Source: Marsupella aquatica
Taxonomy: Eukaryota > Plantae > Marchantiophyta
Assembly (NCBI GenBank): GCA_973895155.1
Contig: OZ316896.1
Coordinates: 7,178,780-7,242,779, forward strand
Length of the DNA: 64,000 nt
Reading direction: 5' to 3'
Both the position numbers and the translations under genes were made by a program. This document shows positions 2,845 through 44,952 of this stretch, piece after piece; positions within the stretch are counted from its first letter, which is position 1, and each line of letters starts with the position of its first letter. The notes beneath the pieces were generated by a model. It was not told the DNA's origin. It saw nothing but the letters and a program-made list of their open reading frames with translations, and did no database searches.

Positions 2845-2871
2845 AAGTGTGCAGCGTCCCCGCAAACACAC

Positions 2872-9830: not shown

Positions 9831-9838
9831 TTATATAC
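9831..9838 (-). promoter_or_regulatory. Putative TATA box of the A LTR
   Basis: GTATATAAGGAG is conserved in all four A-type LTR copies (also ~485, ~48116, ~57985). Confidence 0.6.
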
Positions 9839-12678: not shown

Positions 12679-15600
12679 TATGATGCCTAGACAGGAATCA
12701 CTCGGCCGGTTAAGTGGGTAAAGCAGGAAGGCACCCTAGGAACACCTTAGTATAGTGACAAAACAAGGAAAATATAAACAATTAGGGGCAACCATGGAAC
12801 CCGGGCAGAGGCCGGAGGTAAGGCTGAGGGTGAAAACCCGATTAGGGTTAGGGCGCGTTAAGCGTCGGTGGCTAGGAAGGATCAACGGGAAGAAGGACGG
12901 GCAGAGGAGAGGGGTAAGGAGCGCTTTCAGGAGATGGTGGCTCATTTGCGAGCACGAACTAGGCAGACGACTACGGGAGGCCAACTACTGTCAGCTGCTT
13001 AGGCAAGCACTCGGGGAGAGAGTAGATACCGACGATCAACCTAAGGAGGGTATGAGCAACGTCAATCAAGCGGCACATTTCTGGGGATGCCTGTTCGAAC
13101 GGGCAACTGAGTACATCAAGACTTACGAGGACGAGGAGTCAGAAAGGGCAGCTCGAGAACGGCAGGAGCTCGCTCGATTGTGGGAGCTGCAGAAGACGGC
13201 TTTCTTAGGAGGCGAACTCATCAAGGACGAGTTCCTGTGGACGCCTACTTCCAATCAACTCGACGATCTTCTGTTTTGCAAAGACAACGTCGTCGGCATC
13301 CGAGAGGCCATCAAGAACTGCAACGACATACACTGGGAATTAAAGGGTAGCACGGAAAGGTGGACCCAGGCAACGGTGCTAGGAGAAACCTCCACGGCAG
13401 CAGAGATGAAGAGGAAGGGAGCCGTCAACGATGAAGCCACCCCGGCAAAAAGAACGAGGTCGGCGGCACCAAAGAAGCCAGCCGAGCAGCAGAGCAGGAG
13501 GCAGGGAGAAGCCGAAGAGGAGGAGGTCGATCCCATCAAGGCCATTCCAACCAGGGATGACACCTGGAAGGGCTGGGCGGCAACCCTACCGGTGGAGGTG
13601 CAACTACATTTTGCACGGGAGGAGGATGCATGCTTTACGGCCATGCAGACCAAGAAGTACCAAGGCTTCATGGCCGGATCCGGCTTGGAGGCCTTTGTAA
13701 GATTACCATGGCTGAAGCCGGAGGTACCGGAGTCAGACCTATTAGAATTCGTGGGGTCATGGGAACCCGAGACCAATTGCACGAGGATATATGGGAAGGA
13801 TTTCTATCTTACTCCCAAGGTAATTGCCGAAGTGTTTGGCTTGCCGATAGGCAATAAGACCAAAGTTGATACCAGGAAGACCTTGCCTGACAAGGAGTTC
13901 CGGTCGTTCCCCGGGCCATCAACGAAGAATGGCTTCTTCCGGAACACCTGCACCAACCCGCACATAGGAGAGATGATCGACTTCTTGCGGGTGACCATGC
14001 ATTGTAACTTGCCGAGGGCAGAGATCGGCAAGGCACAGGTCTATCTGGCAGAAAGGCCAGACCCAAGCCGGGACTACAACGGGTACCTCCTCAACCAATT
14101 GAAGAAGATCTTAAAGGAGGAGCAGCAGGTAATCGGCATGGGGAGCGTGTCGCGGCTTGGCTATCACATGCCGCTGTTGTGCCGGTATGCCAGAGGTCAG
14201 ACTTTTGCCCCGGTACTTCCCCTGCAGGTAAGGGCACCCGAGGAAGCTCCAACACCGAGGCCGTTGGCTGAGAAGCCTCAACCACCTGTTAGTCCTACGA
14301 TCGAGCAGGTGTTTAGGCCCAGGAAGGAAGACTTGCCGATGCAGCAACCAGGCATGCAGAGTCTGCTGAAACTACTGGAGAAAGAAAAGAAATCGGCATC
14401 GGCAACAACAACAACAACGGCAACGGCAACAATGCAGGACACTACTACAGAGGTAGGCCTACACCGGCTCACAAGAGAAAACCCCTTTGCTGGAGACAAG
14501 GAGAGAATCAGGCCGGAATCCAAGCCAGGTGTTCGAATGTACGTGGGAACCTCAAGCTCCGAATCTGAGGCAGAATTGCCTGAAGCTCCTACCGACGAAG
14601 AGGAGAGGGAGAAGCCGGACGTCCAAGAGGTAGAGGAGGCAGTGGAGGCCTGCAGCCATGATAATTCCGGCTATGGGTCGGACCATCACGTTCCAGGAGT
14701 AAGGACCTGTGGCCGGTTTGTCCCCACACTTCCAAGGGTAGTGCGAGGGGACCCCAACCAGCAGAGTAGCCCTGAGTCTCCCCCACCAGATGTTGCTCCC
14801 CCGAGCTTTGACGGCATAAAACAGACGGTGCAGGAATTTCAGGAGCGAATCAAGCAGGAGGAAGAGGCCGCCCTGGCTAAGGAAAAGGATTTACCAGGAG
14901 GAGATTGGCCGGAGGACATCAGGCGGCTAGCCGAAAAAGGAAGCAAACCTCTAGCCACGATTGAAGAGATCCGCAGGACGGCTTGGGAGCAGAGGCCACG
15001 ATGGGCGATGCCGATCACTTCTACTTACTCCACCTACGCTAAGAATAGAGCCATGGAGTATGGTGAGATGTGTGGGGAACTTGCGCTCGGCATCTTTGGA
15101 GAGGAGTTGGAGGTAGGACCCTTTTTCCATAGGGAGCAGTTGGAGAAGCACCAATTAGAAGAAGCGGTGGCTTTAGAGAGAAGCAAGAAGGACGAGGTCA
15201 TTCGGCGGCTTAGGAGGATGGGAGCCAAGATTGAAGATCTAAGGGCGGCCAAGAAAGCCCAAGATGAACTGCGGATTAAACGACATGAGCTGAACATCAT
15301 GCAGGGGCAGTTGGACGCCGCGCAGGCTGATAATCAGAATATCAAGGATAAACTGACTCAGACGCAGGAAGAGTTGGCCGACACGATCAAAGAGAGGGAA
15401 AAGTGGAAGCAAGAGCTGAAGAATACAGAGGAGGCCCACATAACAGCCAACAGCCGGGCCATGGCGGAGACCCAAAGAAAGGAATGGGCGTTGAAAGGGG
15501 AGCTCGAGAAAATCCGCGGAGCCCTTGAGCAGAAGGAGGTCGAGTTAGGGAAATCCTATCAAGGGATTATGGCGCTGCAGCAGGAGCTTGCGTCCCTGAC

Positions 15601-17320
15601 GGCCAGCTTCAAGGCCGACCTAAGGGAGAAGGACGAGATGCTCGAACAGACTTACGCCAAGATGAACCAGATGGAGTCTGTCATCATTGCAGAGCTCGAC
15701 AAGGAGCTAAGAGCAACCCAGGAGGAGAGGGCTACCTTGAAGAAGGAATTGGAGGAAGCCCACAGGGAGCAGGAGGAGGCCAAAAACGAGCTGGAGGGGG
15801 CACGTAAGGACCTGGATGAAACCCAAGAGGAGTTGGAGGAAATCACGAGGAAGATGGAGAACCTACAGCGGCGGGCCGACAACCAAACAGAGCGGCTGAA
15901 GAAACAAGCCGCAGTATTTAAATGCTTAGCTGCAGCAGGTCCATCTCCCGTTGGGACAAACCAGTTACCAGGGGTGGTAATTGCCGAAGGACAAGCCGCG
16001 CCACCTGCACCAGTGCCGGAAGTAAGTGGGAAGGGGAAGGGACCAGCTGCCGAGCCACCAACGAAGAAGAAGCGGAAACCTTCAGGGTCAAGGAGTAATA
16101 TGACTTCACAGGCCGTGGTGATCAAGGAGGTAGACCCAGCACCGACCCCAGACAGGGTCACGGCTAAGGATCCAACTACCCTAGGGGAAGGGGAGGCCAA
16201 AGCCGTGGGAGTGGCTGAGGCCGAAGCCGTGGGTATTGCCGAGGCCGGTGTCGAGGCTGAAGCCGAAGGTGGACCCAGTCAGGCCGATGGAGAGTTGACT
16301 CGGTCAAGGGCAGGTAATCTGTCAGTAGGCGGGCCAACGGCAGTGGCTGAGGAGGAAGTGTTGGGGGCGTCCATTGAGGATCCACCACCGGTGTCGTGAC
16401 GGTGCAAGGGCGCCGTTCCTTTTAGGGAGGGCGGACGTGGAGGGAGGAGGCATGAGTGGGCAGGGCGGGCACGGATCTCCACGTTTAGGATTAGGATCAG
16501 AACCAGGAACGGCCCTGACACTTAGCTTAGTGGGATTGCGGTCCCACTGGTAGGAGCAACACTTGTGCTCCTGCCTTGCTGTACATAGGTAGATTCGGGC
16601 AAGTAGATTACTGTTAAGTAGATTAGGCTTACGATGCAAAGAATGGCGGATCCACTACCAGGATAAGTACCTGGGTAGCGGGGAGCTCAGGGCCTCTTCT
16701 TTAGCAAGTTCTTAGTTTGCACCAGCCGGGCTGGGATCAAGTAGTACGAGAAGCTCTCGGTTAGTCATACAGTGACCCTTGTGTATATTCATGTTTCCTC
16801 ATGCCTAAGAGCTGAATAGAGTTGGCCTCACGGCTTAGTTCGCAGAACTTATGTATGAGATGTACTGTTTGTATGGCAAGTGCATGGTATGACTCAGTCA
16901 GAATGAGTCATTTTGCTATTTGTGTGTCGCATTAACTTGTGTGAAGAGTGCCCACATCAACAGAAGGAAGGAAAGTAAGCAGGGGAGTGAGAGTTGGATG
17001 TGTCGAGCTGAGAGAGGTCTTAGCGGCTTAACCAAGCCTATTGGGGATCATTCCGGCGGCGGAATCCAAACATACCTAACAAGACGGAGGGGAAGACAGG
17101 GGAAGACAGGGGAAGGCCTATATTAGGCCGGCTACGTATCTCATGACCCGATGAAGGATCTGTCCAGTATATGTGTGTAAAATGTTAATAGTAGTAGTAG
17201 AAGGTTAGCAGCGTCCCATGCCGCTAAGCCGCGAAAACAGCCTCGCCAAGCACGAAACCTGCGGGAATCGGCTTGAGCTGGGGGGTTTCTTGGGTTTAGG
17301 GAGCCATGGGACGCACCACA
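12679..17320 (+). repeat. Family B 5' LTR (4642 bp) containing a long ORF
   Basis: Starts TATGATGCC; the copies at 28206 and 39216 start TGTGATGCC and each directly follows a PPT. Ends GACGCACCACA, followed by a PBS. Confidence 0.9.
13052..16399 (+). CDS. Intact LTR-encoded protein of unknown function (~1115 aa from MSNVNQ; frame open from 12755): N-terminal domain, central retroelement accessory-type domain, Pro/Glu linker, long coiled coil, basic NLS-like motif
   Basis: Uninterrupted frame. The central motif LPW..EFVGSW...IYGKDFYLTPKVIAEVFGLP resembles plant retrotransposon extra-ORF domains (by eye). Also a heptad-rich E/K/L segment and KKKRKP. The start was chosen by alignment to the family C start MSHTILSSSAIQFW. 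Confidence 0.85.
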   Translation: MSNVNQAAHFWGCLFERATEYIKTYEDEESERAARERQELARLWELQKTAFLGGELIKDEFLWTPTSNQLDDLLFCKDNVVGIREAIKNCNDIHWELKGSTERWTQATVLGETSTAAEMKRKGAVNDEATPAKRTRSAAPKKPAEQQSRRQGEAEEEEVDPIKAIPTRDDTWKGWAATLPVEVQLHFAREEDACFTAMQTKKYQGFMAGSGLEAFVRLPWLKPEVPESDLLEFVGSWEPETNCTRIYGKDFYLTPKVIAEVFGLPIGNKTKVDTRKTLPDKEFRSFPGPSTKNGFFRNTCTNPHIGEMIDFLRVTMHCNLPRAEIGKAQVYLAERPDPSRDYNGYLLNQLKKILKEEQQVIGMGSVSRLGYHMPLLCRYARGQTFAPVLPLQVRAPEEAPTPRPLAEKPQPPVSPTIEQVFRPRKEDLPMQQPGMQSLLKLLEKEKKSASATTTTTATATMQDTTTEVGLHRLTRENPFAGDKERIRPESKPGVRMYVGTSSSESEAELPEAPTDEEEREKPDVQEVEEAVEACSHDNSGYGSDHHVPGVRTCGRFVPTLPRVVRGDPNQQSSPESPPPDVAPPSFDGIKQTVQEFQERIKQEEEAALAKEKDLPGGDWPEDIRRLAEKGSKPLATIEEIRRTAWEQRPRWAMPITSTYSTYAKNRAMEYGEMCGELALGIFGEELEVGPFFHREQLEKHQLEEAVALERSKKDEVIRRLRRMGAKIEDLRAAKKAQDELRIKRHELNIMQGQLDAAQADNQNIKDKLTQTQEELADTIKEREKWKQELKNTEEAHITANSRAMAETQRKEWALKGELEKIRGALEQKEVELGKSYQGIMALQQELASLTASFKADLREKDEMLEQTYAKMNQMESVIIAELDKELRATQEERATLKKELEEAHREQEEAKNELEGARKDLDETQEELEEITRKMENLQRRADNQTERLKKQAAVFKCLAAAGPSPVGTNQLPGVVIAEGQAAPPAPVPEVSGKGKGPAAEPPTKKKRKPSGSRSNMTSQAVVIKEVDPAPTPDRVTAKDPTTLGEGEAKAVGVAEAEAVGIAEAGVEAEAEGGPSQADGELTRSRAGNLSVGGPTAVAEEEVLGASIEDPPPVS

Positions 17321-17324
17321 TTTT

Positions 17325-17342
17325 TGGCGCTAGATGGAGGGG
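17325..17342 (+). promoter_or_regulatory. Primer-binding site, tRNA-Asn type
   Basis: TGGCGCTAGATGGAGGGG lies 4 nt after the LTR CA and resembles the Tat-type PBS TGGCGCTAGAAGGAGG. Confidence 0.8.
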
Positions 17343-17389
17343 GCATTTCTTAAGCCGTGAGATATGAAGTTAGAACGGAAGCGTAGGTA

Positions 17390-19561: not shown

Positions 19562-22060
19562 TGTCGCACCCATAACTCGGGCCTTAAATCCAAGTTAGTT
19601 CCCTAGGGCGACCTCGACCACCAGTAGGGGTGAGGGTTCGGGCAAGGAGGTGTGTAGCAGGCCCGATTAGTCCTAAGTCGGGCTAAGTCAATATACTTAA
19701 CGGTATAATACTTACGCAGCTCGTACTAGTCATAGGTATATTTGTTTTCCACCGCTGGAATATTCCCACAATTAGTGACTCGGACTAACTCCCGGCTTGG
19801 GGCTTTCAAGCCATCGATGCGACAGAACTTTGTGACATGCAATGGGTGGCAATCCCTACCATTAGTTCGCACCCAGTACGTCCCTTGAAATGGCGCCTTT
19901 TCCCGGACAAAGCATACACACAACACCAGTTACTCGTGGAAAAATCAGAGGGAAAAGACTATATTTACTCAGCGAAGAATCAGTTTACATAGTTGACTCG
20001 ACTTCTAAGGAGGTCAGCACGCCTAAGGCAGTCGATGCCCAATCTCTACGAGGCCCCGCCCCGCACTTGCCCAACAAGCTCGACTCTGGCTCTCACTCCT
20101 TAGTGCACTCTGACCCTGCTCAGGCCAGCACTCCCCGTGCCTCGCCTTTTCTTGCACTGAGATAACTAAGCCTTCTCCTCGTCCTCCAATGGAAGGGGAA
20201 GCCTAAATACTACGGTTGCAGAAAGGAACCAAAAGATACTACCTCCCGGGGTAATGCCTACTGTACTGAGTAACTACCTTTTGACTAACCGGCTGTACTA
20301 CCTCTGACCGATTGACCGTTAGTGGCGGCGGCACTGACCGCGGTGGCAATAGCCAAGTCTACTGACCAAAATCTAGTTTGTTGATGGACTCTATCCTATG
20401 TCAACCGATCCTAACTGATTCTGTCCTAATGCTTCCTATTGTGCCGCTAATCGATGCCTAATGACAACCATTCTGTCGTTAAGCCTAATCAAAAAGATGT
20501 TGTTGACTCAACTACCCCGCGCGGTGCTTGCTCACATCCTCTACTAACCACCCCTTACGTGTGTGCTGTGGTCGGGCCAGGGTTTGTCCCCTTTTCGGGA
20601 CAAGACCTCGAGCCGCCTTGATCAGAGGCGGGCCCAGGTCTTGCCCGCTGGAGGACGAGCAGAGTAATGCGGTCCTGCAAGGCCTTGTTGTCCCATACCG
20701 CCTCTTTTGCCTTGTTTGCAGCTTCATCGGCCTTGCTTAGGAGCCTTGCTACCTCCAGGTTGAGCTGGCCGATGGAGTCACAATGGGTCTGGTCCTGCGC
20801 CAGCAATTTATCTCGCTCGGCGGAGAGACTAGCCACATGCTGAGCTGATTGCAGGAGTTGGTTGTTGAGGTCGGACAGGCTGGTAACCCGAGCCGAGGAT
20901 TCTGAGCGCAACTGAAGCACGGTGTTGTCCCGCTTCTTGAGATCTGCTTGCGCCGTGCTCAACTCTTGGCTTAGTCCATCCCGTTGTTCAACAGTGTGGA
21001 CTAACTCCTCACGACGGGTAGTGGCCTCTTCTTCAAGGTGTTCCACTAGCATTTGGAGGCGCCCGATCTCGTTCCCCTTTGCCATGAGTTCTTCCTCCAA
21101 GGGGCTTACGATCCGCGGTTGGTGCTCTAACATGAAGAAGGCTGGTTGGAAGTACGCCATGACTTGTTGTCCGATGTATGTCGCCAGCTCCCCTGACATA
21201 GTCTGGCTAAACTTCTAGACCAGGTCGTAGGCCATGGTCCCTGGGGCTACTTGGTAGTCCTCCATCCTCTCGGGCACCGGTGGTTCCTCGGGCGGGGGGG
21301 GCGAGCTCCTCCGTAGTCTGCAATGGGGAGGGGAAGGTTTCTTTAGGTGGTGGAGGGATTGGGGGTGGTTGTACCGGGGGTAGCGAAGGCTTGACGGAAG
21401 GGGGTGGCGGAATTTCAACAGGAGGAGGTGACGGAGTATTAGTCGGGGCTCGGGGTTTGCCTGAGGCGTGGTAGTTTGCTCGCTCGAGGTAGCCTCCTCG
21501 GGAGCGGGGGTGGCGCTAGTCAGGGCTGAGGTGGCCATGTTCTTTCCCCTTGCCTCCCGCCGCGCTTTGTACTAGGCAAGGATGTTGGCGATGTGACTTC
21601 CTACGTAGGTCCTTCCCCCGATAGCCATACCTCCTTGAGCTTGCTTAAGCTGCCCCGAGAACCTACGGTAAAAGAATTGGGCCTAGTTCCGCCGTTTGTA
21701 CTATTCCACCTATACGATTGTATAGAGGGAGATCTTGGATTGTGGCTCAATCATGTGTAGGGTAGTCCGTATGAAGTTAAGCCGCTCCATATAGACCAAG
21801 TTGGTGCAGGACCCTTGCTTGTACCCGTTGTCTGTCTTACCCTCTGGTTTGAAGTGCCGAGGTGTATACTCCTTATCCCAAATTTGGAGTTCAACCAAAA
21901 TCGGCCTGGTTGGCAGACAAAAGATCTGTGCCAACCGATGCTCCGTGAGTGATAAGGTATGTCTTGAAACCTTGGTGGTAGATGTGTTAGTGTTGAAGTT
22001 GGATATGAACTCACAAACCTAGCTCCCTTGGTCCGGCTGCATTAGGTCTCCATAGCAAGT
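19562..22060 (-). mobile_element. Family D LTR-like unit (minus copy), 5' part lost at the LINE junction
   Basis: Inverted homologue of 12178-12678 and 18136-19338; terminus TGTCGCACC at 19562. Confidence 0.75.
20555..22060 (-). pseudogene. Family D LTR-encoded ORF, degraded
   Basis: LSLTEHRLAQIFCLP...DNGY...ERLNFIRTTLHMIEP...IGGRTYVGSHI aligns with family C MSLTEERLKMIFGLP...DNGF...ERLEFQRYALHMMEP...IGGKAYFASHI. A Pro-rich linker and coiled coil follow. Confidence 0.8.
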
Positions 22061-24011
22061 GAGCAAACTACTAGATGCTAGTGGCATGCCTTTGCTCCTT
22101 GGGGACACCATTCAGTTTACAGAGAGGGAGGTGAAGGTGCATCTTTCCCACATGCAACATGGGAAAGCTAAAGATCTGTTGGGCCTGAACTTGGAGCTTC
22201 TTTTGTGGGGAGGACCCTCTTTACTAACAAACTTGGTGCATGAGCTGAATCAAGCAATGGCTTTAGGTTTACCTAAAGCTTGGATGACCAGAAGAGTGGT
22301 GCCTATCTTCAAGGCAGGCAACAAGGACGATGTGCACAACTACAAAACCATCATGGTAGGCAATACTTTTGCTAAAGTTTTGGGAGGACTACTTGAAGCC
22401 AGATTAAGCTCTTGGTTGGAGAGTGAGATGAAAAGGGCACCTTCACAAGCAGGTTTTAGGAGAGAATTCAGCACTATGGATCACATTCTCTGCTTGAGGG
22501 TGTTGTGTGAAAAGGCCAAATCTCCACATAAACCATTATTTTGCTTGTTTGTGGACTTCTCCAAGGCCTTTGACAAAGTTTCCCGATCCAAGCTTTGGGA
22601 TAGGATGGTGGAGTTGGAAGTGCCTGAAGAGCTCAGGTTGGCTGTTTCTAAATTGTACCAAGAAGTGCGCATCAAACTTTCAAAGGAAACCTCTGAAGAA
22701 ATCTGGAGCACTCTTTGGGTGATCCAAGGTTGTCCTCTCTCACCAACTCTCTTTGGCATCTTCATTGATCAGCTACACAACATTTTGGAGGAGCATGGTG
22801 GAGTTGGCACTCAATTGGGTAGGTTTGTCCTCCAACTTCTTATATTTGCAGATGATGTGGTCCTACTTGCTCATGCTCAAGAAGCTTTGCAAAGGCATCT
22901 CAATGCCTTGGAGGAGTTTTGTCAAGCAACAGGGATGGTAGTCAACCTCAAGAAGACCAAGTGTTTGGGCATTGGCACACGACAAAATCCAGAGCTCTAC
23001 TTCCAAGGGAATCTGGTGGAATTTGTGAGGACCTACAAATACCTTGGGGTGGAGTTCTCTCAAAACTTGAGTTGGGCCTCATGTGTAAAATCTAGGGCTG
23101 CCAATGGGTACAGAGCTTTTTATGCATTCATGAACAAATGCAAAAGAGCTGGTCTACACACTTGGAGGTTAAGGAAACATCTATTTGGAGCTTTGGTGAA
23201 ACCAGTCATTCTTTATGGAGCACCAATTTGGGGAGCAGGTGTGTCTAAATCTGGGTGGCAACAGATTGAGGGGCTGCAAAAGCTATTTATTGAGATGGAG
23301 CTTGGGATCAAGTCACAAACCCCATATGCACTTACACTTGCAGAGGCAGGCTTGTTTCCTTTGGAGGTGGAGGCACTCTTCCACACACTCAAATACATCA
23401 TGCGTGTAAGAGAGTTGGAGGAAAACAGATTTCCTTTTCATGCCTTGCGCTCATCTTCAGCTACAGGGTGGTATGCAGATGTGTGCAGGTGGGCCCATGC
23501 TTGGGATTTTCCTGAACATGAATGGCCAACACACCCAACCAAGCTAGGAGCAAAACTTGAGCAAAAGGCTTTGCACAAACTTTGGCATGAACCTAGCCCA
23601 CGGCAGCAATACTACATGAGAGATGTGAACCCCATGAAGAAATATCGAGAACAAGAATACTTATCTAGCACTATCTCAGTACAACTTAGACAACTTATTG
23701 CTCAGTATAGACTAAGCTCACACCACCTTGAAGTAGAAGAAGGGAGATGGAAGGATATTGACAGGAAAAAGAGGGTTTGTCAACTATGTGATAGCTCTAG
23801 TATAGAGAATGAATATCATGTATTCATTGCTTGCAAGTTTTATGAGGGGGTTAGGATGGCATCTCAAATCTTGGTGAAAGATTTGTATGCATTGTTTGGT
23901 CTGCCCCCTCAGCAACTTGGAAGATATATCTTTGCGGTGGATAGGGAAAGGAGAATAGGTTTGGAAAATCTTTCAGGGCTCTCTAGGTCCATAGTTTCTT
24001 TGAGGACATAG
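22059..24011 (+). pseudogene. LINE ORF2 fragment: reverse transcriptase and C-terminal Cys/His motif
   Basis: QAGFR, FVDFSKAFD, QGCPLSP, FADD, YKYLG, and C-terminal EEGRW...RVCQLC...ENEYHVFIAC. The endonuclease domain is missing through truncation. Confidence 0.92.
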
Positions 24012-24142
24012 TTGTCCTCTTCTGAGCAATCTCTTTTGGTTGCTCTTTTCTTTGATTGCATTGTACTTTACTTTTTGTGGCAGCTCCTTTGACTTTCATG
24101 GTCCCGGAGCTTATAATACATTACCATTACCATTACCATTAC
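22060..24142 (+). mobile_element. 5'-truncated non-LTR retrotransposon (LINE, probably RTE-X clade) with (CATTAC)n tail
   Basis: RT ORF, ~110-bp 3' UTR, and four CATTAC units at 24119-24142. The 5' junction position is approximate. Confidence 0.9.
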
Positions 24143-28205: not shown

Positions 28206-29390
28206 TGTGATGCCTAGCCAGGAATCATTAGGCCAGTTAAAATAGTAAAATCAGGAGTGTACCCTAGGAAACACCTAAGTAGTATAGTAACAAAAACAGG
28301 GAAATATAAACAATTAAGGGTGACTATGGAACCCGAACCGAGGCCGAAAGTAAGGACGTCGGGGGAGGGAACACGATTAGGGCTAGGGCGCGCTAAGTAC
28401 CGGCGGCTATGGGTAACCAATGGGAAGGAAGACCAGCCAAGGGGGGGTAAGGACCGATCGCAAGGAATGGCGGCTCATTTGCAAGCACGAGCTGTCACGT
28501 CGTAGGCTTCGGCCTTAACTCAGACTTCAGCTTAGACGGGCACATCCCTCGTAAATCTGAGGGTTTGGGCAGGAAGGGAAGCACGTAATGCACCTTATTC
28601 TCGTAAACTAGCGCTAAGTGCGCATACTGCTAAATACAGACACCTCCTAGGTATGGTTTGTGTTCCGCCGCCGGAACGTACCTTAGTCGATAGCAAGATC
28701 GACCCCGGCTTAAGGGCTTCTAAGCCTTCGTGCTGTCCGCCTTCGATCCGGATTCGATGATACAGGTCCTCAACCCGTGCTCGCAACCACTTACCCGCAG
28801 GCTGCACCCTGTGCACGTCTCGGGTAGTGCGTTCGGCCCGGCGCTGCCACCCATATACGAGAAACCCACACACATATGCGCACACATGCATACAATCTCG
28901 ATTTACACGAAGGAAAAATGATGGGAAAGGATTTTACTACAAAGGGAACATATGCGTACACTTAGTTGACACGACAGCCCTGGAATGCACAGGTTCAAGG
29001 CCAAGAGTGCACACTACAACGGAGCCCGGCTCCGCACTCGCCCAGCGAGCTTAGTCCTACCCCCTCCCCTTGGTACTCTGTCATTCCCAGAGGTCGGGAC
29101 TCCCCGCATGTCCCGCGGATGTCCGACTCTGAAACTAAAACCCCCCCTTGCCTCTACCGAGGGGTGCACTAAATACTAAGAGCCAAGGAACGGGGCGTCC
29201 TCCTGCCGAAGATCCGCTGACCAAGGTCCTAACTAAGCTGACAGTCAGGCCGGAAAACGGCTGTGTCTTATTAGAAGATCCTAATCTACGCAGGCTGGAC
29301 AGCAGGGCAGCGCTGCTGTACCTAAGGCAGGTGCCTGTCCCAAGAGCCTGACTAAGCCAATCCTAATCCTAATCTATTCCTACTCCGCCG

Positions 29391-32046
29391 CTAATACCTG
29401 GCACGCTTGCCAGAGCCGCCCGAATGGGAACGGCCATCCCGCTGCCTTCGAAGCCTGTCATTGTCCGCTTTGAGGAGCTGGACCTGGTCTAGCAGAGATT
29501 CGTTCTCTCGCCTCGCCGCGTCCGTCTCCTCTGCTGCCTCCTGACATGCCTCCTCCAGCTGCTGGGCATCGCTCGTCAGTTTACTCGCCAGCTGGTCCTG
29601 CTTCTCGGCCTCGGTTTGGAGCCGCGCCATCTCGGCCTGCAGCGTGGCTATCTCCGTTGCGTCCCGCTGGGCTCGCTCCTCGGCCTCCTCCAGGTCTTTC
29701 TGCCAGGTGACAGCTTGTTTCTTCAAACTGTCAATCTGGTTCCGGAGTCGTGTAATCTCGGCCTCGTTCCCAGCTTTGGCCTGTTCGGCTAGGGCGGTAA
29801 GAGCGTACGCCTTTGCTAACAACTCATCGGCGGCTGCAACCTTGGGTCGTAGTTGCAGAAGCTCAGCCTCTTGAGCCGCCACTTCGTTCTTTAGGTACAC
29901 GGACTCCACCCGGTACCGCTCTATCCTCTGAAGGGCCTCCGACTGGGCCCGACCTGCCTTTACGGCGGCAACCAACTCCTGATTGAAGAAACAGGCTACC
30001 TTCCGGGCCATGAACTCCCCGGTATCCCGGGCAATTTGATGAGAGAAATCTCCTAGAAGCCCGTTCAGAAACGTACCCTGTACGAAGAGTTCTGGGTGGT
30101 CCAAGTTGTGCCTGTCCGGATTTGGGCACGGGCAGACATCAACACGCGCAGGGGCCGGGGCAGTGACGTCCAGCCCTGGGGACATAACGTTGGAAGGGGC
30201 TGGAGTGTCCTCCTGCAGCGATGTCCGGTTCTCCGGAATTGCCACCGGCGGGTCCTTGGGAGACCCGGGTTCGGGTAAGACCTCTGCCGTACCAACTTCT
30301 GTACTTAGCCTGGCTAGTTGGGTCGCATCAACGGTTGCGATGACCGACCCCTCCGGCGCCTCCTCGGTTACGATTACAGCTATTTGTGGAGGTGGGGTGG
30401 GTGAAGCTGGCGTGTCCACTGGACTTCGGGCCTCGGGTTGGGGCCGTCTCTCCAATGCCGGAAAAACCCACCTAGCTGGGACCAGCTTTGTAACGTTGAT
30501 GCGGGGAAGGGTTCGTCGATCAAACCGGGCGTACCACTCAAGAATGATTTCGATGTGGCTAGCGAAATACGCTTTCCCGCCAATGTACAGCGTCTTCCTT
30601 CGCCGCTCCATCTCTTCATGGAATTTCTTAGCGAAGTACGACGCCCATTTCCTAGGTCGATAGTTCTCGACCTGGATGACCTGGGCGGCGGAGATCTCCC
30701 CCCGGGGTTCCATCATGTGGAGAGCGTACCTCTGGAACTCCAGCCGCTCAGCTATCTCGGGCATGAGGCAGGTCCTCATCACGAACCCGTTGTCCACTGA
30801 TCCCTCTGAGGGAAAACTTGAAGATTGGTACTTGGCCCCCTTGCCCCCGGGAGCCCGTGATTCGACTCGATGGTCACCTTCGGGTAACCCGAAGATCATC
30901 TTGAGTCGTTCTTCTGTGAGGGACATATTCCTTCCCCGCAGCCGAGTCTGTTGACGTACGTCGTCATAATTCTTGATGAATTCTGTCATGTCCTCCCCGT
31001 AGTACCTGCAAGTGTTCCAGGGGAGAGAGGCGAGGTGCTCAAATCCCTGAGTCTTCAGGTACACCGCATGCTTGGGATGGAGGATGTTGCTGTGAACGTT
31101 TTCCCCCATGCGATGCATCGTTACCTTGGCTACGGCTACCGTGGCCAACGGTAACCCGGATGCACTGGCGGATTCCTTCCTCTTCTTTCCCCGTGACTGA
31201 CTCGGGGAAGGTGATACTTCCCCATCCTCCCGATCGGGCCTGGGGAGTGCCACCGCGGTTGGTAACGGGCCCGGGGCGGCCACGGTCACCATGTTGTCTG
31301 CTGGGGCCGCTCCTGGGGTCAGAGCAGGGGGTGGGGACGATATAGTGTCGGCCCCCCGAGCGCTCACTAACCTTATTGGCCTCCCAAGTGTGAGGAAGGA
31401 TCTGTGGGGTAGCCTCGTCGTCATCGCTAAGATCCACAGCGTTGATGACGGAGCGTACCTGTGCTGGCTGGGTGATAGGTGGTGGGGTTTGGCTAGGCCG
31501 CGGCTGAGGCTGAAGCTGAAGCTGAGGTTGCATGGGCACGGGTACGGGTACGGGTACGGGTCCGACTGAGTTGGTCATGTTGGTTGATGGCCGAGTTCCC
31601 ATGAAGCTCTATAGGTGCTGGTAGAAGTTCTCCGAAGCGAGTGCGGACGCCCTTGTCGAACAGTTGGTACTGGACTCGCCGTTAATGACAGCCCGAACCT
31701 GGGCAGGGATGTGGTCGAAGTGATGTCGCTGCAGGTCAATTGTACCCGGGATATTGAAGACCTCGTCCGGAAGCCGAAGCAATGCTTCCCAGAACCCGAT
31801 ATATTTGTCTCCGTTGAAGAAGTACCCACATACCTCAGCTGGTCGGTAAAGCTCGCTCTGAGACGGGTAGTCAAAGTTAAGGACGTAGTGGTGTCGTCCT
31901 GCTAGGCGGATGGCTCTCTCGTATTCGTGTTCGATCTCGTATTGGCGCGGGTTGGCGTGTTTCAATGAATCGGCCAAGTGCCTTCCGGTAGATAGGAACT
32001 GCGTCCAGAATTGAATGGCCGAGCTGGAGAGGATCGTGTGCGACAT
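29391..32046 (-). pseudogene. Family C LTR-encoded ORF (~885 codons ancestrally; one CAG>TAG stop near 31609 and one frameshift near 31400)
   Basis: The 145-aa, 187-aa and 677-aa ORF pieces join into one frame when compared with copy C2. Homologous to the B ORF. Confidence 0.85.
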
Positions 32047-32147
32047 TCAGAGGAGATAGTAGTGGCGACCTAGAGAGAACGAGAGAGCTGGGGTCGAAGC
32101 TGGCGCGCGGACTGATGGACTGGTGCACTACAAAGGGTTGGCTCCCC

Positions 32148-32155
32148 TTTTATAT
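32148..32155 (-). promoter_or_regulatory. Putative TATA box upstream of the C ORF
   Basis: ATATAAAAGGGG ~100 nt upstream of the ATG at 32046, followed by a CT-rich leader. Conserved in C2 (~56077-56084). Confidence 0.55.
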
Positions 32156-32613
32156 TTTGAGGGCTTGTCGATCCTCGACGTCTCCTCGACGCCCATAGGT
32201 TGAACCGCTCACGCTTGTGGTGTACCGGCCACTCCGCCGGTCTGAGTCAGCGTGTGTCAGTGGCCGCTTCCTTAAGTTCGTTATACGGACCCGAGGGAGG
32301 GGCCCCTCCACGCTCGTAACCCGGGTGTGCGAATAGCGACCCGCCGCCAGCCCGAACCTGAAGTCCCCCTTATTGCCTAATGATGTCCTACCCCTAATGA
32401 TTACCTAAATACTGTCGTTATGCTAATAATAGCGACCTAAGACCCTAAACCCTAATGCGCGTGCCGAGCGCAGTTAGACTGAATCACTCATTAACCGCCG
32501 TACCGGCGGCGTCACACGAGCCAAGCGGACGACTAAGGGAGGCCAACTACTGTCCGTTGCTCAGGCAAGCACTCGGAGTGGAAGCAGATACCGACAATCA
32601 AATCAAGAAGGGT

Positions 32614-34851
32614 ATGAGCAACGTCAATCAAGCTGCTCATTTTTGGGGATGCTTGTTAGAACGGGCAACTGAGTACATTGGGACCTACAAAGACAAAGAA
32701 TTGGAGAGAGCGGCTCGAGAATGGTAGGAGCTCGCTCGACTATGGGAATTGCATAAGTCTGCCTTCTTAGGAGGAGAACTCATTATGGCTGAATTCTTGT
32801 GGACGCCTACTGCCGACAAACTCGCCGATCTTCTGTTTTGTGAGAACATAATAGTTGGCATCCGGGAGGCCATCAACCGCTGCAATGACATACACTGGGA
32901 GTTGAAGGGTAGCACAAAGGGGTGGACAAAGGCAACCGTGCTAGGAGAAACATCCACGGCAGCCGCTATGAAGAGGAAAGGGAATAACAACAAAGAAGCC
33001 ACCCCTACGAAAAGAACGAGGTTGGCGGCACCCAGGAAACTAGTAGAGCAGGGAAGCAGGAGGCAGGCGGAAGCCAAAGAGGAGGAGGTCAACCCCATCA
33101 ATGCCGTTCCAACAAGAGATGACACATGGAAAGGCTGGGTGGCGACCCTCCCCGAGGAGGTGCAATTACACTTTGCACGAGAAGAGGATGCATGCTTTAC
33201 GGCTATGCAGACTCGGAAATACCAGGGCTTCATGGCTAGATCCGGCTTGGAAGCCTTCGTAAAGTTACCATGGCTGAAGCCGGAGGTGCCGGATTTGGAC
33301 TTACTAGAATTCGTGGGATCATGGGAGCCCGAGACCAATTCCACAAGGGTGTATGGGAAGGATTTCTATCTCACTCCCCGGGTGATCGCCGAAGTGTTTG
33401 GCTTGCCGATGGGCAATAAGACCAAAGTAGATACCAGGAAGACCTTGCCAGACAAGGAGTTTCGGTTGTTTCTAGGGCCATCAACAAAGAATGGCTTCTT
33501 TCGAAACACCTGCACCAACCGCACATAGGAGAAATGATCGATTTCTTGCGGGTGACCATGCATTGTAACTTGCCGAGGGCAGAGATCGGCAAGGCACAGG
33601 TCTATCTGGCGGAGAGGCCAGACCCAAGCCGAGACTACAACGGGTACCTCCTCACCCAACTAAAGAAGATCTTGAAGAAGGAACAACTGGTGATCGGCAT
33701 GGGAAGCGTGTCCCGGCTTGGTTATCATATGCCACTGTTGTGCCGGTATGCCCGAAGTCAGATATTTGCCTTGATACTGCCCTTGCAGGCAAGAGCACCA
33801 GAGGAGGTTCCGGAACCGAGGCCGGCAACAGAGAAACCGACCCAGCCCGACAGTCCTACAATCGAGCAGGTGTTTAGGCCGAGGAAGGAGGACTTGCCGA
33901 TGCAGCAACCAGGCATGCAAAATCTGCTGAAATTGCTAGCAAATGAAAGGAGAACGGCAACGGCAATGGGACCGGTACAGAATACTGCTCCCAAAGTTGG
34001 CCTTAGCCAACTTACCAGGGAAAACCCCTTTACCGAGATCAAGGAGAGAAGGAGGCCGGAACACGAGCCGGGAGTCTGAATGTATGTAGGAGCTTCAAGT
34101 CCCGAAGCCGAGGAAAAGCAGCCTGAAGCTCCTGGTCACGACAGGGAGAAGATGAGATCAACGTGGAAGCTGAAGGAACCAGGACCCGTGATCTGTGAGG
34201 CCGTGTTCATGGCAAGACCAGGACGGCAGCCGGGGGAGCCGGTAGTCCAAGCCGAGGAGGAGGCGGTAGAAGGCTACGACAATGATGACTCCGTCTACGG
34301 GTCGGACCATCATTTTCCAGCAATAAGGACCTGTGGCAGGTTCATCCCCACGCTTCCAAGAGTAGTTCGAGGGGACCCGACCCAACAGAGCAACCCCAAG
34401 TCTCCCCCACCAGATGTCGCTCCCCCGAGCTTTGACGGCATAAAATAGACGGCACAGGAGTTTCAAGAATGACTCAGGGAGGAAGAAGAGGCAGCCCCGG
34501 CTAGGGAGAAGGATTTACCAGGAGGAGGATGGCCAGAGGACATCAGGCGGCTTGCAGAAAAATGAAGTAGCCCGCCAGCCACGATAGAAGAAATTTGCAA
34601 GGCGGCTTGGGAACAAAGGCCGCGGTGGATGATGCCGATGACTTGTACTCACTCCGCCTATGCTAAAGAACGAGCCATGGAGTACAAGGAGATGTATGGG
34701 GAACTTGTGCTCGACATCTTTGGGGAGGAGTTAGAGCAGGGACCCTTTTTCCAGAGGGAAATGTTGGAGAAGCGCCGATTAGAAGAAGCGGTGGCTTTGG
34801 AGAGAAGCAAGAAGGACGAGGTCATCCATCGGGGGCAAGGGAAGCTGAGGT
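32614..34851 (+). pseudogene. Family B LTR-encoded ORF, degraded copy
   Basis: MSNVNQAAHFW... pieces match 13052-15235, with stops and a frameshift. Confidence 0.88.
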
Positions 34852-39215: not shown

Positions 39216-39592
39216 TGTGATGCCTAGCCAAGAATCACTAGGCCGGTTTACATGGTAAAAGCAGGAGTGTACCCTGGAAACACCTTAGTATAGTAACAAG
39301 ACAAGGAAAATATAAACAATTAAGGATGACTATGGAACCCGGGCCGAGGCCGGAAGTAAGGACGTTGGGGGAGAGAACACGATTAGGGTTAGGGCGCGCT
39401 AAGCGTCGGCGGCTAGGGGTGACCAACGGGAGGGAAGACCAGAGGAGGAGAGGGGTAAGGACCACTCGCGAGGAATGGTGGCTCATTTGCAAGCACGAAC
39501 TGGGCAGACGACTACGGGAGGCCAAATACTGTCAGCTGCTTAGGCAAGCACTCTGGGTGAGAACAGATACCAATGATCGAGTCAAGGAGGGT

Positions 39593-42500
39593 ATGAGCAA
39601 CGTCAATCAAGCGGCACATTTTTGGGGATGCCTATTCGAACGGGCAACTGAGTACATTGGGACTTACGAGGACGAAGAATCAGAGAGAGCAGCTCGAGAA
39701 CGGCAAGAGCTTGCTCGACTGTGGGAGCTGCAGAAGTCTCCCTTCTTAGGAGGAGAACTCATCAAGGCCGAGTTCTTGTGGACTCCTACTGCCAATCAGC
39801 TCGATGACCTTCTGTTTTGCGAAGACAGAATCGTCGGCATTCGGGAAGCCATCAACCGCTGCAACGACGCGCACTGGGAGTTGAAGGGTAGCACGGAAGG
39901 GTGGACAAAGGCAACTGTGCTAGGAGAAACATCCACAGCAGCCGAGATGAAGAGGAAAGGAAACAACAATGAAGAGGCCACCCCGGCAAAAAGAACGAGG
40001 TTGGCTGCACCAAGGAAACCAGTAGAGCAGCAAAACAGGAGGCAGGGAGAAGCCGAAGAGGAGGAGGTCGATCCCATCAATGCCATTCCAACAAATGATG
40101 ACACGTGGAAAGGCTGGGCGGCGACCCTACCAGAGGAAGTGCAATTACATTTTGCACGGGAGGAGGATGCATGCTTTACGGCCATGCAGACCAAGAAGTA
40201 CCAGGGCTTCATGGCCGGATCCGACTTGGAAACCTTTGTAAGATTACCATGGCTGAAGCCGGAGGTGCCGGACTCAGACTTATTAGAATTTGTGGGATCA
40301 TGGGAACCCGAGACCAATTCCACGAGGGTGTATGGGAAGGATTTCTATCTCACTCCCCGGGTGATTGCCGAGGTGTTTGGCTTGCCAATGGGTAATAAGA
40401 CCAAGGTTGATACCAGGAAGACCTTACCTGACAAGGAGTTCTGGTCGTTCCCAGGACCATCAACAAAGAATGGCTTCTTCCGGAACACTTGCACCAACCC
40501 GCACATCGGAGAGATGATTGATTTCTTGCGGGTGACCATGCATTGTAACTTGCCGAGGGCAGAGATCGGCAAGGCTCAGGTCTACCTGGCAGAAAGGCCA
40601 GACCCAAGCCGGGATTACAACGGGTACCTCCTCAACCAACTAAAGAAGATCTTGAAGGAGGAACAGCAGGTGATCGGCGTGGGAAGCGTGTCCCAGCTTG
40701 GCTATCACATGCCGCTGTTGTGCCGGTATGCCAGAAGTCAAATCTTTGCCCCAGTACTTCCCCTATCGGCAAGGGCACCGGAGGAAGTTTCGGAGCAGAG
40801 GCCGGCAACAGAAGAGCCCAACCATCCTGTCAGTCCTACGATCGAGCAGGTGTTTCGGCCAAGGAAAGAAGACTTGCCGATGCAGCAATCAGGCATGCAA
40901 AATCTGCTGAAAATAATGGAGAAGGAGAGAACGGCACCAGCAACGGCAACAACACCGGTACAGGACACTGCCCCAGAGGCCGGCCTAAGCCAACTCAGGA
41001 GGGAAAACCCCTTTACCAGAGCCAAGGAGAGAAGTAGGCCGGAACACAAGTCGGGAGTGCGAATGTATGTGGGAGCCTCAAGCCCCAAATCGGAGGCAGA
41101 GCAGCCTAAGGCTCCTTCTCACAGAGAGCAGAGGGAGAGGATAGCCTGGAACCGAGAGAAGGAACAAGGGCCCGTGATCTGTGAGGCCGTTTTCACGGCA
41201 GGACCAGGGGAACAGAGGGGGAAGTCGGGAGTCCAAGCAGTGGAGGAGGCGATGGAGGACTACAACAATGATAACTCCGGCTATGGGTTGGATCATCATG
41301 TTCCAGGAGTAAGGACCTGTGGCCGATTTATCCCCACGCTTCCAAGAGTAGTTTGAGGGGACCCCACCCAGCAGAGTAGCCCCGAGTCTCCCCCACCAGA
41401 GGTTGCTCCCCCGAGCTTTGACGGCATAAAGCAGACGGCACAAGAATTTCAGGAGCAACTTAGGGAGGAAGAGAAAGCAGCCCTGGCTAGGGAGAAAGAT
41501 TTACCAGGAGGAGATTGGCCGGAGGACATCAGGCGGCTTGCCAAAAAAAGAAGCAACCCTCTTGCCACCGTAGAAGAAATCCGCAAGGCGGCTTGGGAAT
41601 AGAGGCCGAGGTGGTTGTTGCCGATGACTTCTACTTACTCCACCTATGCTAAAGATAGAGCCATGGAGTACGGGGAGATGTGTGGGGACCTGGCACTCAG
41701 CATCTTTGGGGAGGAGTTGGAGCAGGGACCTTTCTTCCAGAGGGAGAGGTTGGAGAAGCACCGATTAGAAGAAGCGGTGGCTTTGGAGAGAAGCAAGAAG
41801 GACGAGGTCATCCGACGGCTTAGGGAGAAGGAAGCCGAGGTGGAAGTCCTGCAGGCAGCCAAGAAAGCCCAAGATGAGCTGCGGATTAAGCGGCATGAGC
41901 TAAACATCATGCAGGGGTAGTTGGATACCGCTCAGTCTGACAATCATATCAAAGATAAACTGACTCGGACCCAAGGAGAGTTGGCCTGCGCAGTCAAGGA
42001 AAGAGAGAAATGGAAGCGGGAGCTAAGGGACGCAGAGGAGGCCCACTTAACCGCCAACAACCATGCCATGGCGGAGACTCAGAGAAGGGAGAGGGCGTTG
42101 AAAGGAGAGCTCGAAGATATCCACGGAGCCCTTGAGCAGAAGGAAGCAGAGTTAGGGAAATCCTATCAAGGGATTATTGCGCTGCAGCAGGAGCTTGCGT
42201 CCCTGACGGCCAGCTTCAAGGCCGACCTGCGTGAAAAGGACGACCAGCTCGACCAGACTTATGCCAAGATGAATAAGATGGAGTCTGTGGTCGTAGCAGA
42301 GCTGGACAAGGAGCTAAGAGCAACCCAGGAGGAGAGGGCTACCTTAAAGAAAGAATTGGAGGAAGCCAAAAAGGAGCTGGAGGAGGCGCGCAAGGACCTG
42401 GACAAGACCCAGGAGGAGTTGGAGGAAATTACGAGGAAGATGGAGAACCTACAGCGGCGGGCCGACAACCAAACAGAGCGGCTGAAGAAACAAGCCGCAA

Positions 42501-43015
42501 TATTTAAATGCTTGGCTTCATCAGGTCCAACTCCAATTGGGGCAACCCAGTTACGAGGGGTAGTATTGGCCAAAGGACAAGCCGAGACACTCACCCCGGT
42601 GCCGGAGGTAAGTGGCAAGGGGAAGGAACTGGCTGTCGAAATAGGGAAGAAGAAGAAGCGGAAACCTTCTAGGTCTGGGAGTTATACGGCTTCTCAAGCC
42701 ATTATGACCGAGAAGATAAACCCGGCACCAACCTCCGGCATCGGCACGGCGGTGGATCCACCAGTCCTAGTAAGTGGGGATGGCAAGGCCGAGGCCGGGA
42801 CAACCAGTAATGAAGCCGAGGTACCAGATCCTCCACTAGAACATGCCGGGGAGGCCGTGGCCGATGCTCAGGCCGAAGCCGAGGGTGGACCCAGTCAGGC
42901 CAATGAAGAGTTGACTCGGTCCGGGGCAGGTAATCTGTCAGAGGATGGACCAACGACAGTGGTTGCGGAGGAAGCGTTGGGAGTGTCCATTGAGGACCAG
43001 CCACCGGGGTCGTGA
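39593..43015 (+). pseudogene. Family B LTR-encoded ORF with three in-frame premature stops and no frameshift
   Basis: ORFs 39326-41356, 41615-41920 and 41921-43015 share one frame. The stops correspond to CGA or CAG codons in B1. Confidence 0.9.
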
Positions 43016-43501
43016 CGGTGTAAGGGAGCCGTCCCTTTTAGGGAGGGCGGACGTGGAGGTAGGAGGCGTGAGTGGGCAGGGCGGACGCTAATCTCCAAGT
43101 TTAGACTAAGGATCAGGACCAGGAGACGGCCCTGACACTTAGATTAGTGGGATTGCGGATCCATGAGTGAGGGCAACACTTGTGCTCCTGCCTTGCTGTA
43201 CATAGGTAGATTACAGTTAGGTAGATTATAGTAAGTAGATTAGGCTTACGCTGCAAGGAATCAGGCGGATCCACAACCAGGTTAAGTACCTGGGCTACGG
43301 GGAGTTCAGGGCCTCTTCTTTAAACAAGTTTTTAGTTGCACCAGCAGGGCTGGGATCAAGTAGTAAGAGAAGCTCTCGGTTAGTTATACAGTGACCCTTG
43401 TGTATATTCATGTTTCCTCATGCCTAAGAATTGAATAGAGTTGGCCTCACTGCTTAGTTCGCAAAGCTTGTGTATGGGATGTACTGTTTGTATGGCAAGT
43501 G

Positions 43502-44523
43502 GTAATGGTAATGGTAATGGTAATGTATTATAAGCTTCGGGACCATGAAAGTCAAAGGAGCTGCCACAAAAAGTAAAGTACAATGCAATCAAAGAAAAGA
43601 GCAACCAAAAGAGATTGCTCAGAAGAGGACAACTATGTCCTCAAAGAAACTATGGACCTAGAGAGCAATGAAAGATTTTCCAAACCTATTCTCCTTTCCC
43701 TATCCACCGCAAAGATATATCTTCCAAGTTGCTGAGGGGGCAGACCAAACAATGCATACAAATCTTTCACCAAGATTTGAGATGCCATCCTAACCCCCTC
43801 ATAAAACTTGCAAGCAATGAATACATGATATTCATTCTCGATACTAGAGCTATCACATAGTTGACAAACCCTCTTTTTCCTGTCAATATCCTTCCATCTC
43901 CCTTGTTCTACTTCAAGGTGGTGTGAGCTTAGTCTATATTGCAATAAGTTGTCTAAGTTGTACTGAGATAGTGCTAGATAAGTATTCTTGTTATCGATAT
44001 TTCTTCATGGGGTTCACATCTCTCATGTAGTATTGTTGCCGTGGGCTAGGTTCATGCCAAATTTTGTGCAAAGCCTTTTGCTCAAGTTTTTCTCTTAGCT
44101 TGGTTGAGTGTGTTGGCCATTCATGTTCAGGAAAATCCCAAGCATGGGCCCACCTGCACACATCTGCATACCACCCTTTAGCTGAAGATGAGCGCAAGGC
44201 ATGAAAAGGAAATCTGTTTTCCTCCAACTCTCTTACACGCATGATGTATTTGAGTGTGTGGAAGAGTGCCTCCACCTCCAAAGGAAACAAGCCTGCCTCT
44301 GCAAGTGTAAGTGTATATGGGGTTTGTGACTTGATCCCAAACTCCATCTCAAGAAATAGCTTTTGCAGCCCCTCAATCTGTTGCCACCCAGATTTAGACA
44401 CACCTGCTCCCCAAATTGGTGCTCCATAAAGAATGACTGGTTTCACCAAAGCTCCAAAGAGATGTTTCCTTAACCTCCAAGTGTGTAGACCAGCTCTTTT
44501 GCATTTGTTCATGAATGCATAAA
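43502..44523 (-). mobile_element. 5'-truncated LINE inserted in the B3 LTR
   Basis: (GTAATG)4 tail; TSD AAGTG at 43497-43501 and 44524-44528; the empty site is at ~16875-16885. Confidence 0.93.
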
Positions 44524-44952
44524 AAGTGCATGGTATAACTCAGTCAGAAGGAGTCATTTTGCTATTTGTGTGTCGCATTAACTTGTGTGAAGAGTGCCCA
44601 CATCAATGAAGGGAAGTAGCAAGGGAGTGAGAGTTGGATGTGTCGAGCTGAGAGAGGTCTTACCGGCTTAACCAAGCCAATTGGGGATCATTCCGGCGGC
44701 AGAATCCAAATATACCTAAAGAAAGCGAGGGGAAGACAAGGGAAGGCCTAGATTGGGCCGGCTACGTATCTCATGGCCTGATGAAGGATCTGTCTAATAT
44801 ATATGTGTAAAATGTTAATAGTAGTAGTAGAGGAGATTAGCAGCGTCCCATGCCGGTAAGCCACGGAAACGGCCTCGCCGAGGACAAAACCTGCGGGAAT
44901 TGGCTTGTGTCGGGGGGTTTCTTGGGTTTGGGGAGCCATGGGACGCACCACA

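Follow-up and report, generated by a model that had tools for sequence, protein, structure and literature searches.

VANC21, encoded by the Arabidopsis transposon VANDAL21, causes loss of DNA methylation and binds a motif of 9 nt, copies of which have built up in the element's non-coding DNA (PMC5735166). A fold common to VANC and the PMD protein MAIN has been reported, together with a coiled coil in VANC, and VANC was described in the same work as dicot-specific (PMC13547354). Modules of PMD-C proteins and DNA motifs are reported to counter Polycomb silencing recruited through teloboxes and TRB (bioRxiv 10.1101/2024.09.27.615353). Among plant retrotransposons, the extra open reading frames (ORFs) of Tat elements carry PMD, PMD plus a coiled coil, or Tr28, and moss Tat-like elements are reported, in the available part of that paper, without extra ORFs (PMC4408406). 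In the accessible sections of the literature on retrotransposons that carry long terminal repeats (LTRs), such extra ORFs of plant elements are placed in the internal region (PMC7264820, PMC4408406), and the LTRs of giant transposons are treated as non-coding (PMC6431247). A search for accounts of a protein gene inside a plant LTR found no description, most subscription journals being outside that search. Here, a 64,000-nucleotide stretch of Marsupella aquatica DNA (contig OZ316896.1, positions 7,178,780 to 7,242,779; hereafter the window, in whose coordinates all positions are given) was analysed for two 4-kb insertions, C1 and C2, each of which carries one large decayed ORF. On balance, we favour the reading that C1 and C2 are solo LTRs of a Ty3/gypsy family whose 4-kb LTR encloses a complete gene for a predicted VANC/PMD-like DNA-binding anti-silencing factor.

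C1 occupies 28493..32516 (4,024 bp; minus strand in element orientation), starting with TGTCACG and ending with GTCACA on the forward strand. Besides C1 itself, the only BLASTN match to it in the window was C2 (52444..56442, minus, 3,999 bp), which lies on the same strand; an alignment of 4,028 columns shows 87.19% identity and 12 small indels between the two. In element orientation the termini read TGTGACG..CGTGACA, an imperfect inverted repeat (6/7 complementary) bounded by TG..CA. C1 is flanked by the target-site duplication (TSD) CGAGC at 28488..28492 and 32517-32521, identical at 5/5 positions, and the flanks of C2 in element orientation, AAACG/AAAAG, match at 4/5. The repeat broken by C1 is a family B copy, and its paralogues B1 and B3 read uninterrupted at this site, GCACGAAC being followed directly by T(A/G)GGCAGACGAC; C1 is thus an insertion with a 5-bp duplication. 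Logan contigs from two public runs also bridged the C1 site, omitting 4,029-4,038 bp. For C2, the empty site was provided by an intact family A LTR, which reads CTAAACGAAAGAATG; the repeat entered by C2 is an old A-like solo LTR, close to one of whose ends it lies. The initial annotation had proposed two independent insertions, C1 at the coordinates above, with TG...CA ends and 5-bp TSDs; coordinates and ends were exact, as the empty paralogous sites confirm, and the duplications held in full at C1 and imperfectly at C2. Its claims that gag/pol and internal terminal direct repeats are absent were also borne out, since 0/16 tblastn matches of the window's own gag-pol fell inside C1 or C2, and the eight direct-repeat families within C1 were each no longer than 25 nt and none was terminal. 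Neither a primer-binding site (PBS) nor a polypurine tract (PPT) was seen inside C. C1 and C2 are discrete, separate integrase-type insertions. That they might be the two LTRs of a single 28-kb element was ruled out, because they broke different host repeats and are flanked by separate duplications.

Both copies retain the same gene-like layout, and here too the initial description (TATA box, CT-rich leader, ancestral ORF of about 885 amino acids, trailer of about 900 bp) was upheld. TATA(A/T)A lies at element position 363 in C1 (TATAAAA at 32148..32154, minus, conserved in C2) and 360 in C2, followed by a conserved CT-rich leader and, about 105 nt past the TATA, by an ATG at position 471 (C1) or 468 (C2). 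The C1 ORF (29391..32046, minus, about 885 codons) is damaged by one in-frame stop (31609-31611) and one frameshift from a 10-bp indel (near 31395-31404), and it ends with a stop at 29391-29393. The C2 ORF (53339-55975) runs in a single frame of 878 codons from ATG to stop with five in-frame stops. After the ORF comes a trailer of 898 bp in C1, and the only polyadenylation-like signals following the C ORF were AATAAG-like sites. Differences between C1 and C2 fell on codon positions 1, 2 and 3 in the numbers 32, 32 and 101 (C1 element positions 1201-3000). The ratio of non-synonymous to synonymous divergence (dN/dS) was 0.21 over 657 codons and 0.16 over the 141 N-terminal codons, and the two wrong frames, used as a control, gave 1.28 and 1.33. 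The C ORF was a real gene, kept by purifying selection during the divergence of the two lineages. Given the third-position excess and the low dN/dS, the 13% divergence accumulated for the most part while the lineages were replicating and dependent on the protein; the few breaks in the two ORFs reflect recent decay. Synonymous divergence (dS) was 0.27, the divergence K of the trailer 0.20, and K in the 470 bp ahead of the ATG only 0.12, so the promoter-proximal DNA was constrained too.

The context of this gene is clearest in family B, whose 4.6-kb repeat stands directly after pol and the polypurine tract AAGTGGGGGGCTA at 28206 and 39216, at 17321 ahead of a PBS-like TTTTTGGCGC with the beginning of gag, and at 62185 ahead of a minus-strand gag-pol. 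An internally deleted B element (12679-18130) is flanked by the 5-bp TSD GACGC and retains a second-LTR remnant of 301 bp, 98.3% identical. With pol and PPT before it, a PBS-like site and gag after it, and a TSD-flanked element, the family B repeat is a true LTR in this window. A homologous ORF lies wholly within both the 5' and the 3' LTR of family B, and not in the internal region. In the 5' LTR (12679..17320, plus), identified by homology, PBS/gag context and TSD, the ORF is intact (likely ATG at 13052, stop at 16397-16399); the 3' LTR (39216..44952, plus), placed behind pol and PPT, carries the same ORF and a 1-kb insertion of a long interspersed nuclear element (LINE) at 43502-44526. The open frame of the B LTR has 1,219 codons, and the ORF of the family B repeats measures 1,100-1,200 amino acids. 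Codon bias begins only past LTR nucleotide ~300, so translation probably starts at the ATG at nucleotide 374 (MSNVNQAAHFW, against MSHTILSSSAIQFW in C), with a TATA-like site upstream at nucleotide ~94. Between B1 and B3 the ORF gave a dN/dS of 0.25 over 1,095 codons.

The C and B proteins matched by BLASTP at 2e-19 (28% identity over 185 residues), with a coiled coil after the domain in both. The LTR starts, TGTGA(C/T)GCC in C and TGTGATGCC in B, are identical over the first 9 nt in C2 and at 8/9 positions in C1, and the two repeats are alike in size and in their order of TATA, ORF and trailer. Outside the ORF, the sole collinear C-B DNA match was the 29-nt trailer motif GTTCCGGCGGCGGAACACAAACCATACCTA (28648..28676, minus; E 3.7e-4; B copy at 17051-17078), which is followed by a TATA-like site; no similarity between C and the family A LTR was found in DNA outside the ORF. 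Because C agrees with B, a true LTR, in ORF homology, in the 9 nt at the start and in layout, C1 and C2 are, to judge from these sequences, most likely solo LTRs. The proposal of a second ORF-in-LTR family thus gained a homologous ORF in the B LTRs and common ends, layout and motif, and lacked in the window a C pair around an internal region. A third family, D, encodes the same domain and coiled coil at 20555..22081 (minus; 35% identical to C, E 1e-22); it is more decayed than C and B and was cut by a LINE at ~22056. As a separate observation, the trailer match at 28648-28676 and 17051-17078 consists of the palindromic motif TTCCGGCGGCGGAA followed by CAAAC(C)ATACCTA, and a similar word, CCGCCGCCGG, lies at the 5' terminus of C.

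The non-coding parts of these repeats contain arrays of TTAGG. In C1, an upstream cluster of six motifs on one strand (32376..32455, minus; element positions 62-141) and a downstream cluster of five (29228..29372, minus), the latter beginning 19 nt past the stop codon, enclose an ORF of 2.66 kb in which TTAGG occurs 0 times. Clusters sit just upstream of the TATA and just past the stop codon in C, B and D alike. Across the non-coding DNA of C1, B1 and D, TTAGG was the most over-represented strand-specific 5-mer of all 1,024, with 28 seen against 7.4 expected (Bonferroni 6e-6).

The C protein comprises a globular domain (30468..31139, minus; model residues 7-230), disordered Pro-rich linkers and a C-terminal coiled coil of ~180 residues (29430..29957, minus; residues ~540-715 of a 727-amino-acid piece, where only coiled-coil families matched). 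A domain profile built from the five window copies was searched against 1.84 billion proteins and matched 80 at E<=1e-3 and 35 at E<=1e-10; the named relatives came from the liverworts Calypogeia fissa and Riccia sorocarpa. Whole window proteins gave only coiled-coil noise in Pfam, none of the five window domain sequences matched PF10536, PF04195 or PF20167 (PMD, Tr28 and Transposase_32), and no match to DUF1985 or DUF287 was found in them. When 34 relatives were scanned in Pfam, four showed sub-threshold Transposase_32 and one DUF1985 at 8e-5, below the cut-off; the remaining 29 showed neither, and 24 of these matched no Pfam family whatever. Leads from a protein language model included DUF1985, Transposase_32, ATHILA and PMD, every score being below 0.9. 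A word-indexed protein search returned nothing for the 727-amino-acid piece and only two proteins, both already known, for the 50-row profile.

For fold prediction, an alignment of 50 rows was used, 45 of them relatives beyond the five window copies. AlphaFold2 gave a model with a predicted local distance difference test score (pLDDT) of 88.6 and a predicted template-modelling score (pTM) of 0.84 from this alignment; the five window sequences alone gave an unusable model (pLDDT 34.3). The top and only notable Foldseek match in the PDB was 9lnj_A, VANC21 with DNA (E 9.6e-3, prob 0.99), and VIA-align superposed the model on VANC21 with Z 8.1 and a root-mean-square deviation of 4.3 A over 205 aligned residues. 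An unbiased VIA search of 48,161 representative chains placed VANC21 at Z 8.0 over 210/241 residues, the runner-up reaching Z 2.2. The domain is thus predicted to match the fold of VANC21 only, among solved structures. This match is unique, spans the whole domain and accords with the weak DUF1985, Transposase_32 and PMD leads.

Under the favoured reading, full-length C elements would exist, and C1 and C2 would have arisen from them by LTR-LTR recombination. The TATA at position ~363 would drive the mRNA of the ORF, so that each LTR, a solo LTR included, would be a self-contained gene for as long as it stayed intact. The protein would oligomerise through its coiled coil and bind short motifs in its own LTR, for which the TTAGG arrays are candidates, and it may protect the LTRs of the family from silencing marks in the way that VANC21 acts on VANDAL21. 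A wider version would hold that bryophyte Ty3/gypsy LTRs carry a VANC/PMD-fold coiled-coil protein that recognises TTAGG/telobox-like arrays on either side of its own gene and strips Polycomb or methylation silencing from the LTRs of the family, that intact solo LTRs serve as helper genes keeping the family active in trans, and that this is the retrotransposon counterpart, possibly the source, of the VANC and MAIN/PMD systems; we regard this version as doubtful.

Several observations weigh against the favoured reading. C1 and C2 stand alone in the window, no C pair enclosing an internal region having been observed, and eight contigs (run X1) leaving the PBS-side end of C had mixed flanks (agreement 0.5) without a TGGCGC-like primer site. 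Both C copies are dead, their ORFs being broken. The LTR of the young and intact family A (3,184 bp) contains no ORF of at least 120 amino acids, and not every element of the group therefore requires the gene; that ORF-less elements such as family A rely on the protein in trans would be speculation. TTAGG was first spotted by eye, the unbiased 5-mer scan being the fairer test, and could equally be a host-factor site, given its resemblance to teloboxes, or part of a promoter or terminator. On the protein side, 0/5 of the window's own domain sequences matched Pfam at E<=10, and VANC21 was not recovered by the sequence profile among PDB sequences (20 rows, all coiled-coil noise). An hhalign comparison with a Vicia Transposase_32 protein was in register and non-significant (E 0.038, probability 1.35%). 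A Z of 8 is middling on the scale of the tool, and a common fold does not show a common function.

Of the competing explanations, the one that survives best, which we consider unlikely, concerns expression: the ORF would belong to U3 and be expressed mainly from full-length elements by read-through or from a spliced subgenomic RNA, and solo LTRs would not be working genes. Precedents are nef of human immunodeficiency virus and sag of mouse mammary tumour virus (MMTV), the latter a superantigen gene in U3 of the LTR that acts on the host immune system. The main promoter would then be a TATA-like site 130-200 nt ahead of the 3' end of the LTR, with the upstream TATA minor or unused. The conserved TTCCGGCGGCGGAA..ACCTA of B and C is indeed followed by such a site (CTATATTAGG in B, TGTATTTAGC in C1 and CGTATATGAC in C2) 130-270 nt before the LTR end, the usual place of the U3/R boundary, and the B ORF starts within 374 nt of the LTR start, right after pol and PPT. 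A model with a single promoter upstream of the ORF needs an R region of ~3 kb, which would be unusually long. These downstream sequences differ between C1 and C2, however, whereas a canonical TATAAAA precedes the ATG by ~105 nt in both. The 300 bp ahead of that ATG are as conserved as coding sequence (91%, against 75-85% in the trailer ends), and K in the 5' region lies far under dS. The ORF may thus belong to R/U5 behind a single promoter, or to U3 with a second promoter close to the 3' end, the two possibilities that the initial annotation had named; the TATA-like site 130-200 nt ahead of the LTR end in B and C keeps the two-promoter version alive.

A second alternative ranks lower and appears improbable to us. 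It concerns function: the protein would be a structural or RNA-handling accessory of the particle, either a multimer like LINE-1 ORF1p or an RNA exporter like CERV of Cer1, and the VANC-like fold would be a generic nucleic-acid scaffold. A globular domain with Pro-rich linkers and a coiled coil of ~180 residues also fits multimeric nucleic-acid chaperones, and an RNA-export accessory protein of an LTR retrotransposon has been described (PMC10309623). For those extra ORFs of Tat/Ogre elements that encode PMD or Tr28, the available text of the reports on them gives no established function (PMC7264820, PMC4408406). On the other hand, only one solved structure has this fold, and it belongs to a protein that binds DNA sequence-specifically and counters silencing, and strand-specific motif arrays flank the gene in three families, as described for VANC targets (PMC5735166).

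That C is no LTR, and instead a mobile gene cassette in its own right, non-autonomous, ending like an LTR and put in place in trans by a B- or A-type integrase, would suit the solitary copies, the eight contigs without a common PBS-like flank and the agreement of C's ends with those used by the B integrase, but we think it very unlikely, because PBS/PPT-primed reverse transcription necessarily yields two LTRs while PBS, PPT and internal terminal repeats are all absent from C, because the homologous gene lies in proven family B LTRs, and because solo LTRs with 5-bp TSDs from other families occur in the same window. Capture of a host gene was also considered and judged unlikely, since three diverged LTR families carry the gene and all show or imply long residence in transposable elements.

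The window as a whole consists of nested Ty3/gypsy elements. Among named relatives, its pol came closest to liverwort sequences (Riccia sorocarpa 58%, Marchantia 48%), further contigs reaching up to 88%; no chromodomain was found in the window's pol, and some of its relatives in angiosperms have a Transposase_32 or ATHILA domain. Judged by these similarities, the elements appear to be non-chromovirus and Tat/Athila-like, and their host is probably a bryophyte. One relative, P0001, is a 1,954-amino-acid polyprotein 88% identical to family A pol on a 19-kb contig among metagenome sources, where it is labelled 'transposase InsO family protein'; such collections thus seem to include DNA of plant retrotransposons under prokaryote-style annotation. 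Two sequenced organisms are very rich in the C family, with 14,803 and 9,083 contig pieces (flanks counted), and scans of metagenome contigs for C gave 131 pattern matches with 0 confirmed and 0 exact 29-mers.

Family A is represented by a young, apparently intact Ty3/gypsy element (1-12177, minus) with one LTR at 8994-12177 and the other truncated where the window begins; over the 2,831 bp present in both, the LTRs share 99.96% identity, gag-pol is one open frame of 2,039 codons, and the PBS-like TTTTTGGCGCCGC lies 16 nt after the LTR. The A-like solo LTR that hosts C2 (52390-58826) is 77-93% identical to family A, is flanked by the 5-bp TSD TCCTA/TCCTG and lies inside pol of a minus-strand B-type element (64000-51782). 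What remains of the B element at 12679-18130 is its 5' LTR with a PBS-like site, some 500 bp that include the beginning of gag, and the terminal 301 bp of the 3' LTR; it arose by internal deletion and not by recombination between LTRs. Of family D, the 3' part is present in two inverted, facing copies (12179-12676 plus 18131-19338, and 21274-19562), 82-87% identical with a spacer of ~220 bp, one of which was later split by the B1 element. A LINE-like element (RVT_1 only, 651-codon frame) occurs at 22056-24142, 34848-36491 and 43502-44526 in partial copies 98-99.6% identical, one of them split into two oppositely oriented parts, as after a 5' inversion; this family seems recently active and cut family D and two B LTRs.

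These results point to a large selected gene inside the LTR in at least two, and probably three, families. Since the gene is inside the LTR, it is present in two copies per element and persists in solo LTRs; these are usually seen as mere promoters. The predicted link to the VANC21 fold would give the enigmatic accessory ORFs a concrete candidate function, namely sequence-specific anti-silencing. If true, the association of the VANC/PMD fold with transposons would extend back to bryophyte-like plants, and the finding bears on the question whether genic PMD proteins derive from retrotransposons (PMC5418596).

Four described systems offer comparisons. MAIN, MAIL1 and MAIL2, the Arabidopsis PMD-C proteins, are reported to have the VANC fold and to counter Polycomb silencing together with short DNA motifs near teloboxes (PMC5418596, bioRxiv 10.1101/2024.09.27.615353). 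The C, B and D LTRs contain telobox-like TTAGGG/TTAGG arrays; the Arabidopsis proteins, in contrast, are flowering-plant host genes without a sequence match to the C domain. MMTV sag is likewise a protein gene wholly inside a retroelement LTR, although its protein is unrelated, its carrier is a vertebrate retrovirus and both ORF and LTR are far shorter. VANC21 (VANDAL21/Hiun of Arabidopsis; PDB 9LNJ/9LNK) resembles the C protein in the predicted domain fold, in being transposon-encoded and in the coiled coil beside the domain. Its motifs pile up in the non-coding DNA of its own element, the counterpart in C, B and D being only the candidate TTAGG arrays. It shows, however, no detectable sequence similarity to the C domain (10% identity in the structural alignment) and is carried by a Mutator-like DNA transposon, whereas the C/B gene lies inside a retrotransposon LTR; VANC is moreover described as dicot-specific (PMC13547354) while the host of C and B is bryophyte-like, and DNA binding and anti-silencing by the C/B protein are predicted only.

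The extra ORFs of Tat elements (Ogre ORF1, Retrosat2/RIRE3/RIRE8 ORF0 and the antisense genes of Retand/Grande) are, as described in the available portions of the reports on them, also accessory genes of non-chromovirus Ty3/gypsy elements with very long LTRs, combine a globular transposable element-associated domain with a coiled coil and are conserved within families (PMC4408406, PMC3485330, PMC7264820). The LTR ends of Retrosat2, TGTCACACCC..GGGCGTGACA, resemble those of C, and remote relatives of the C domain show the sub-threshold Transposase_32 signal. Pfam matches to PMD, Tr28 and Transposase_32 are, by contrast, absent from the window sequences, and the Tat genes are placed ahead of gag, after the PBS, or ahead of the 3' LTR, after pol (PMC4408406, PMC3485330, PMC7264820), whereas the whole gene of family B lies inside the LTR. 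The LTR-borne accessory gene would thus be a Tat-type extra gene with a VANC-like fold that has been relocated into the LTR in a bryophyte-like genome.

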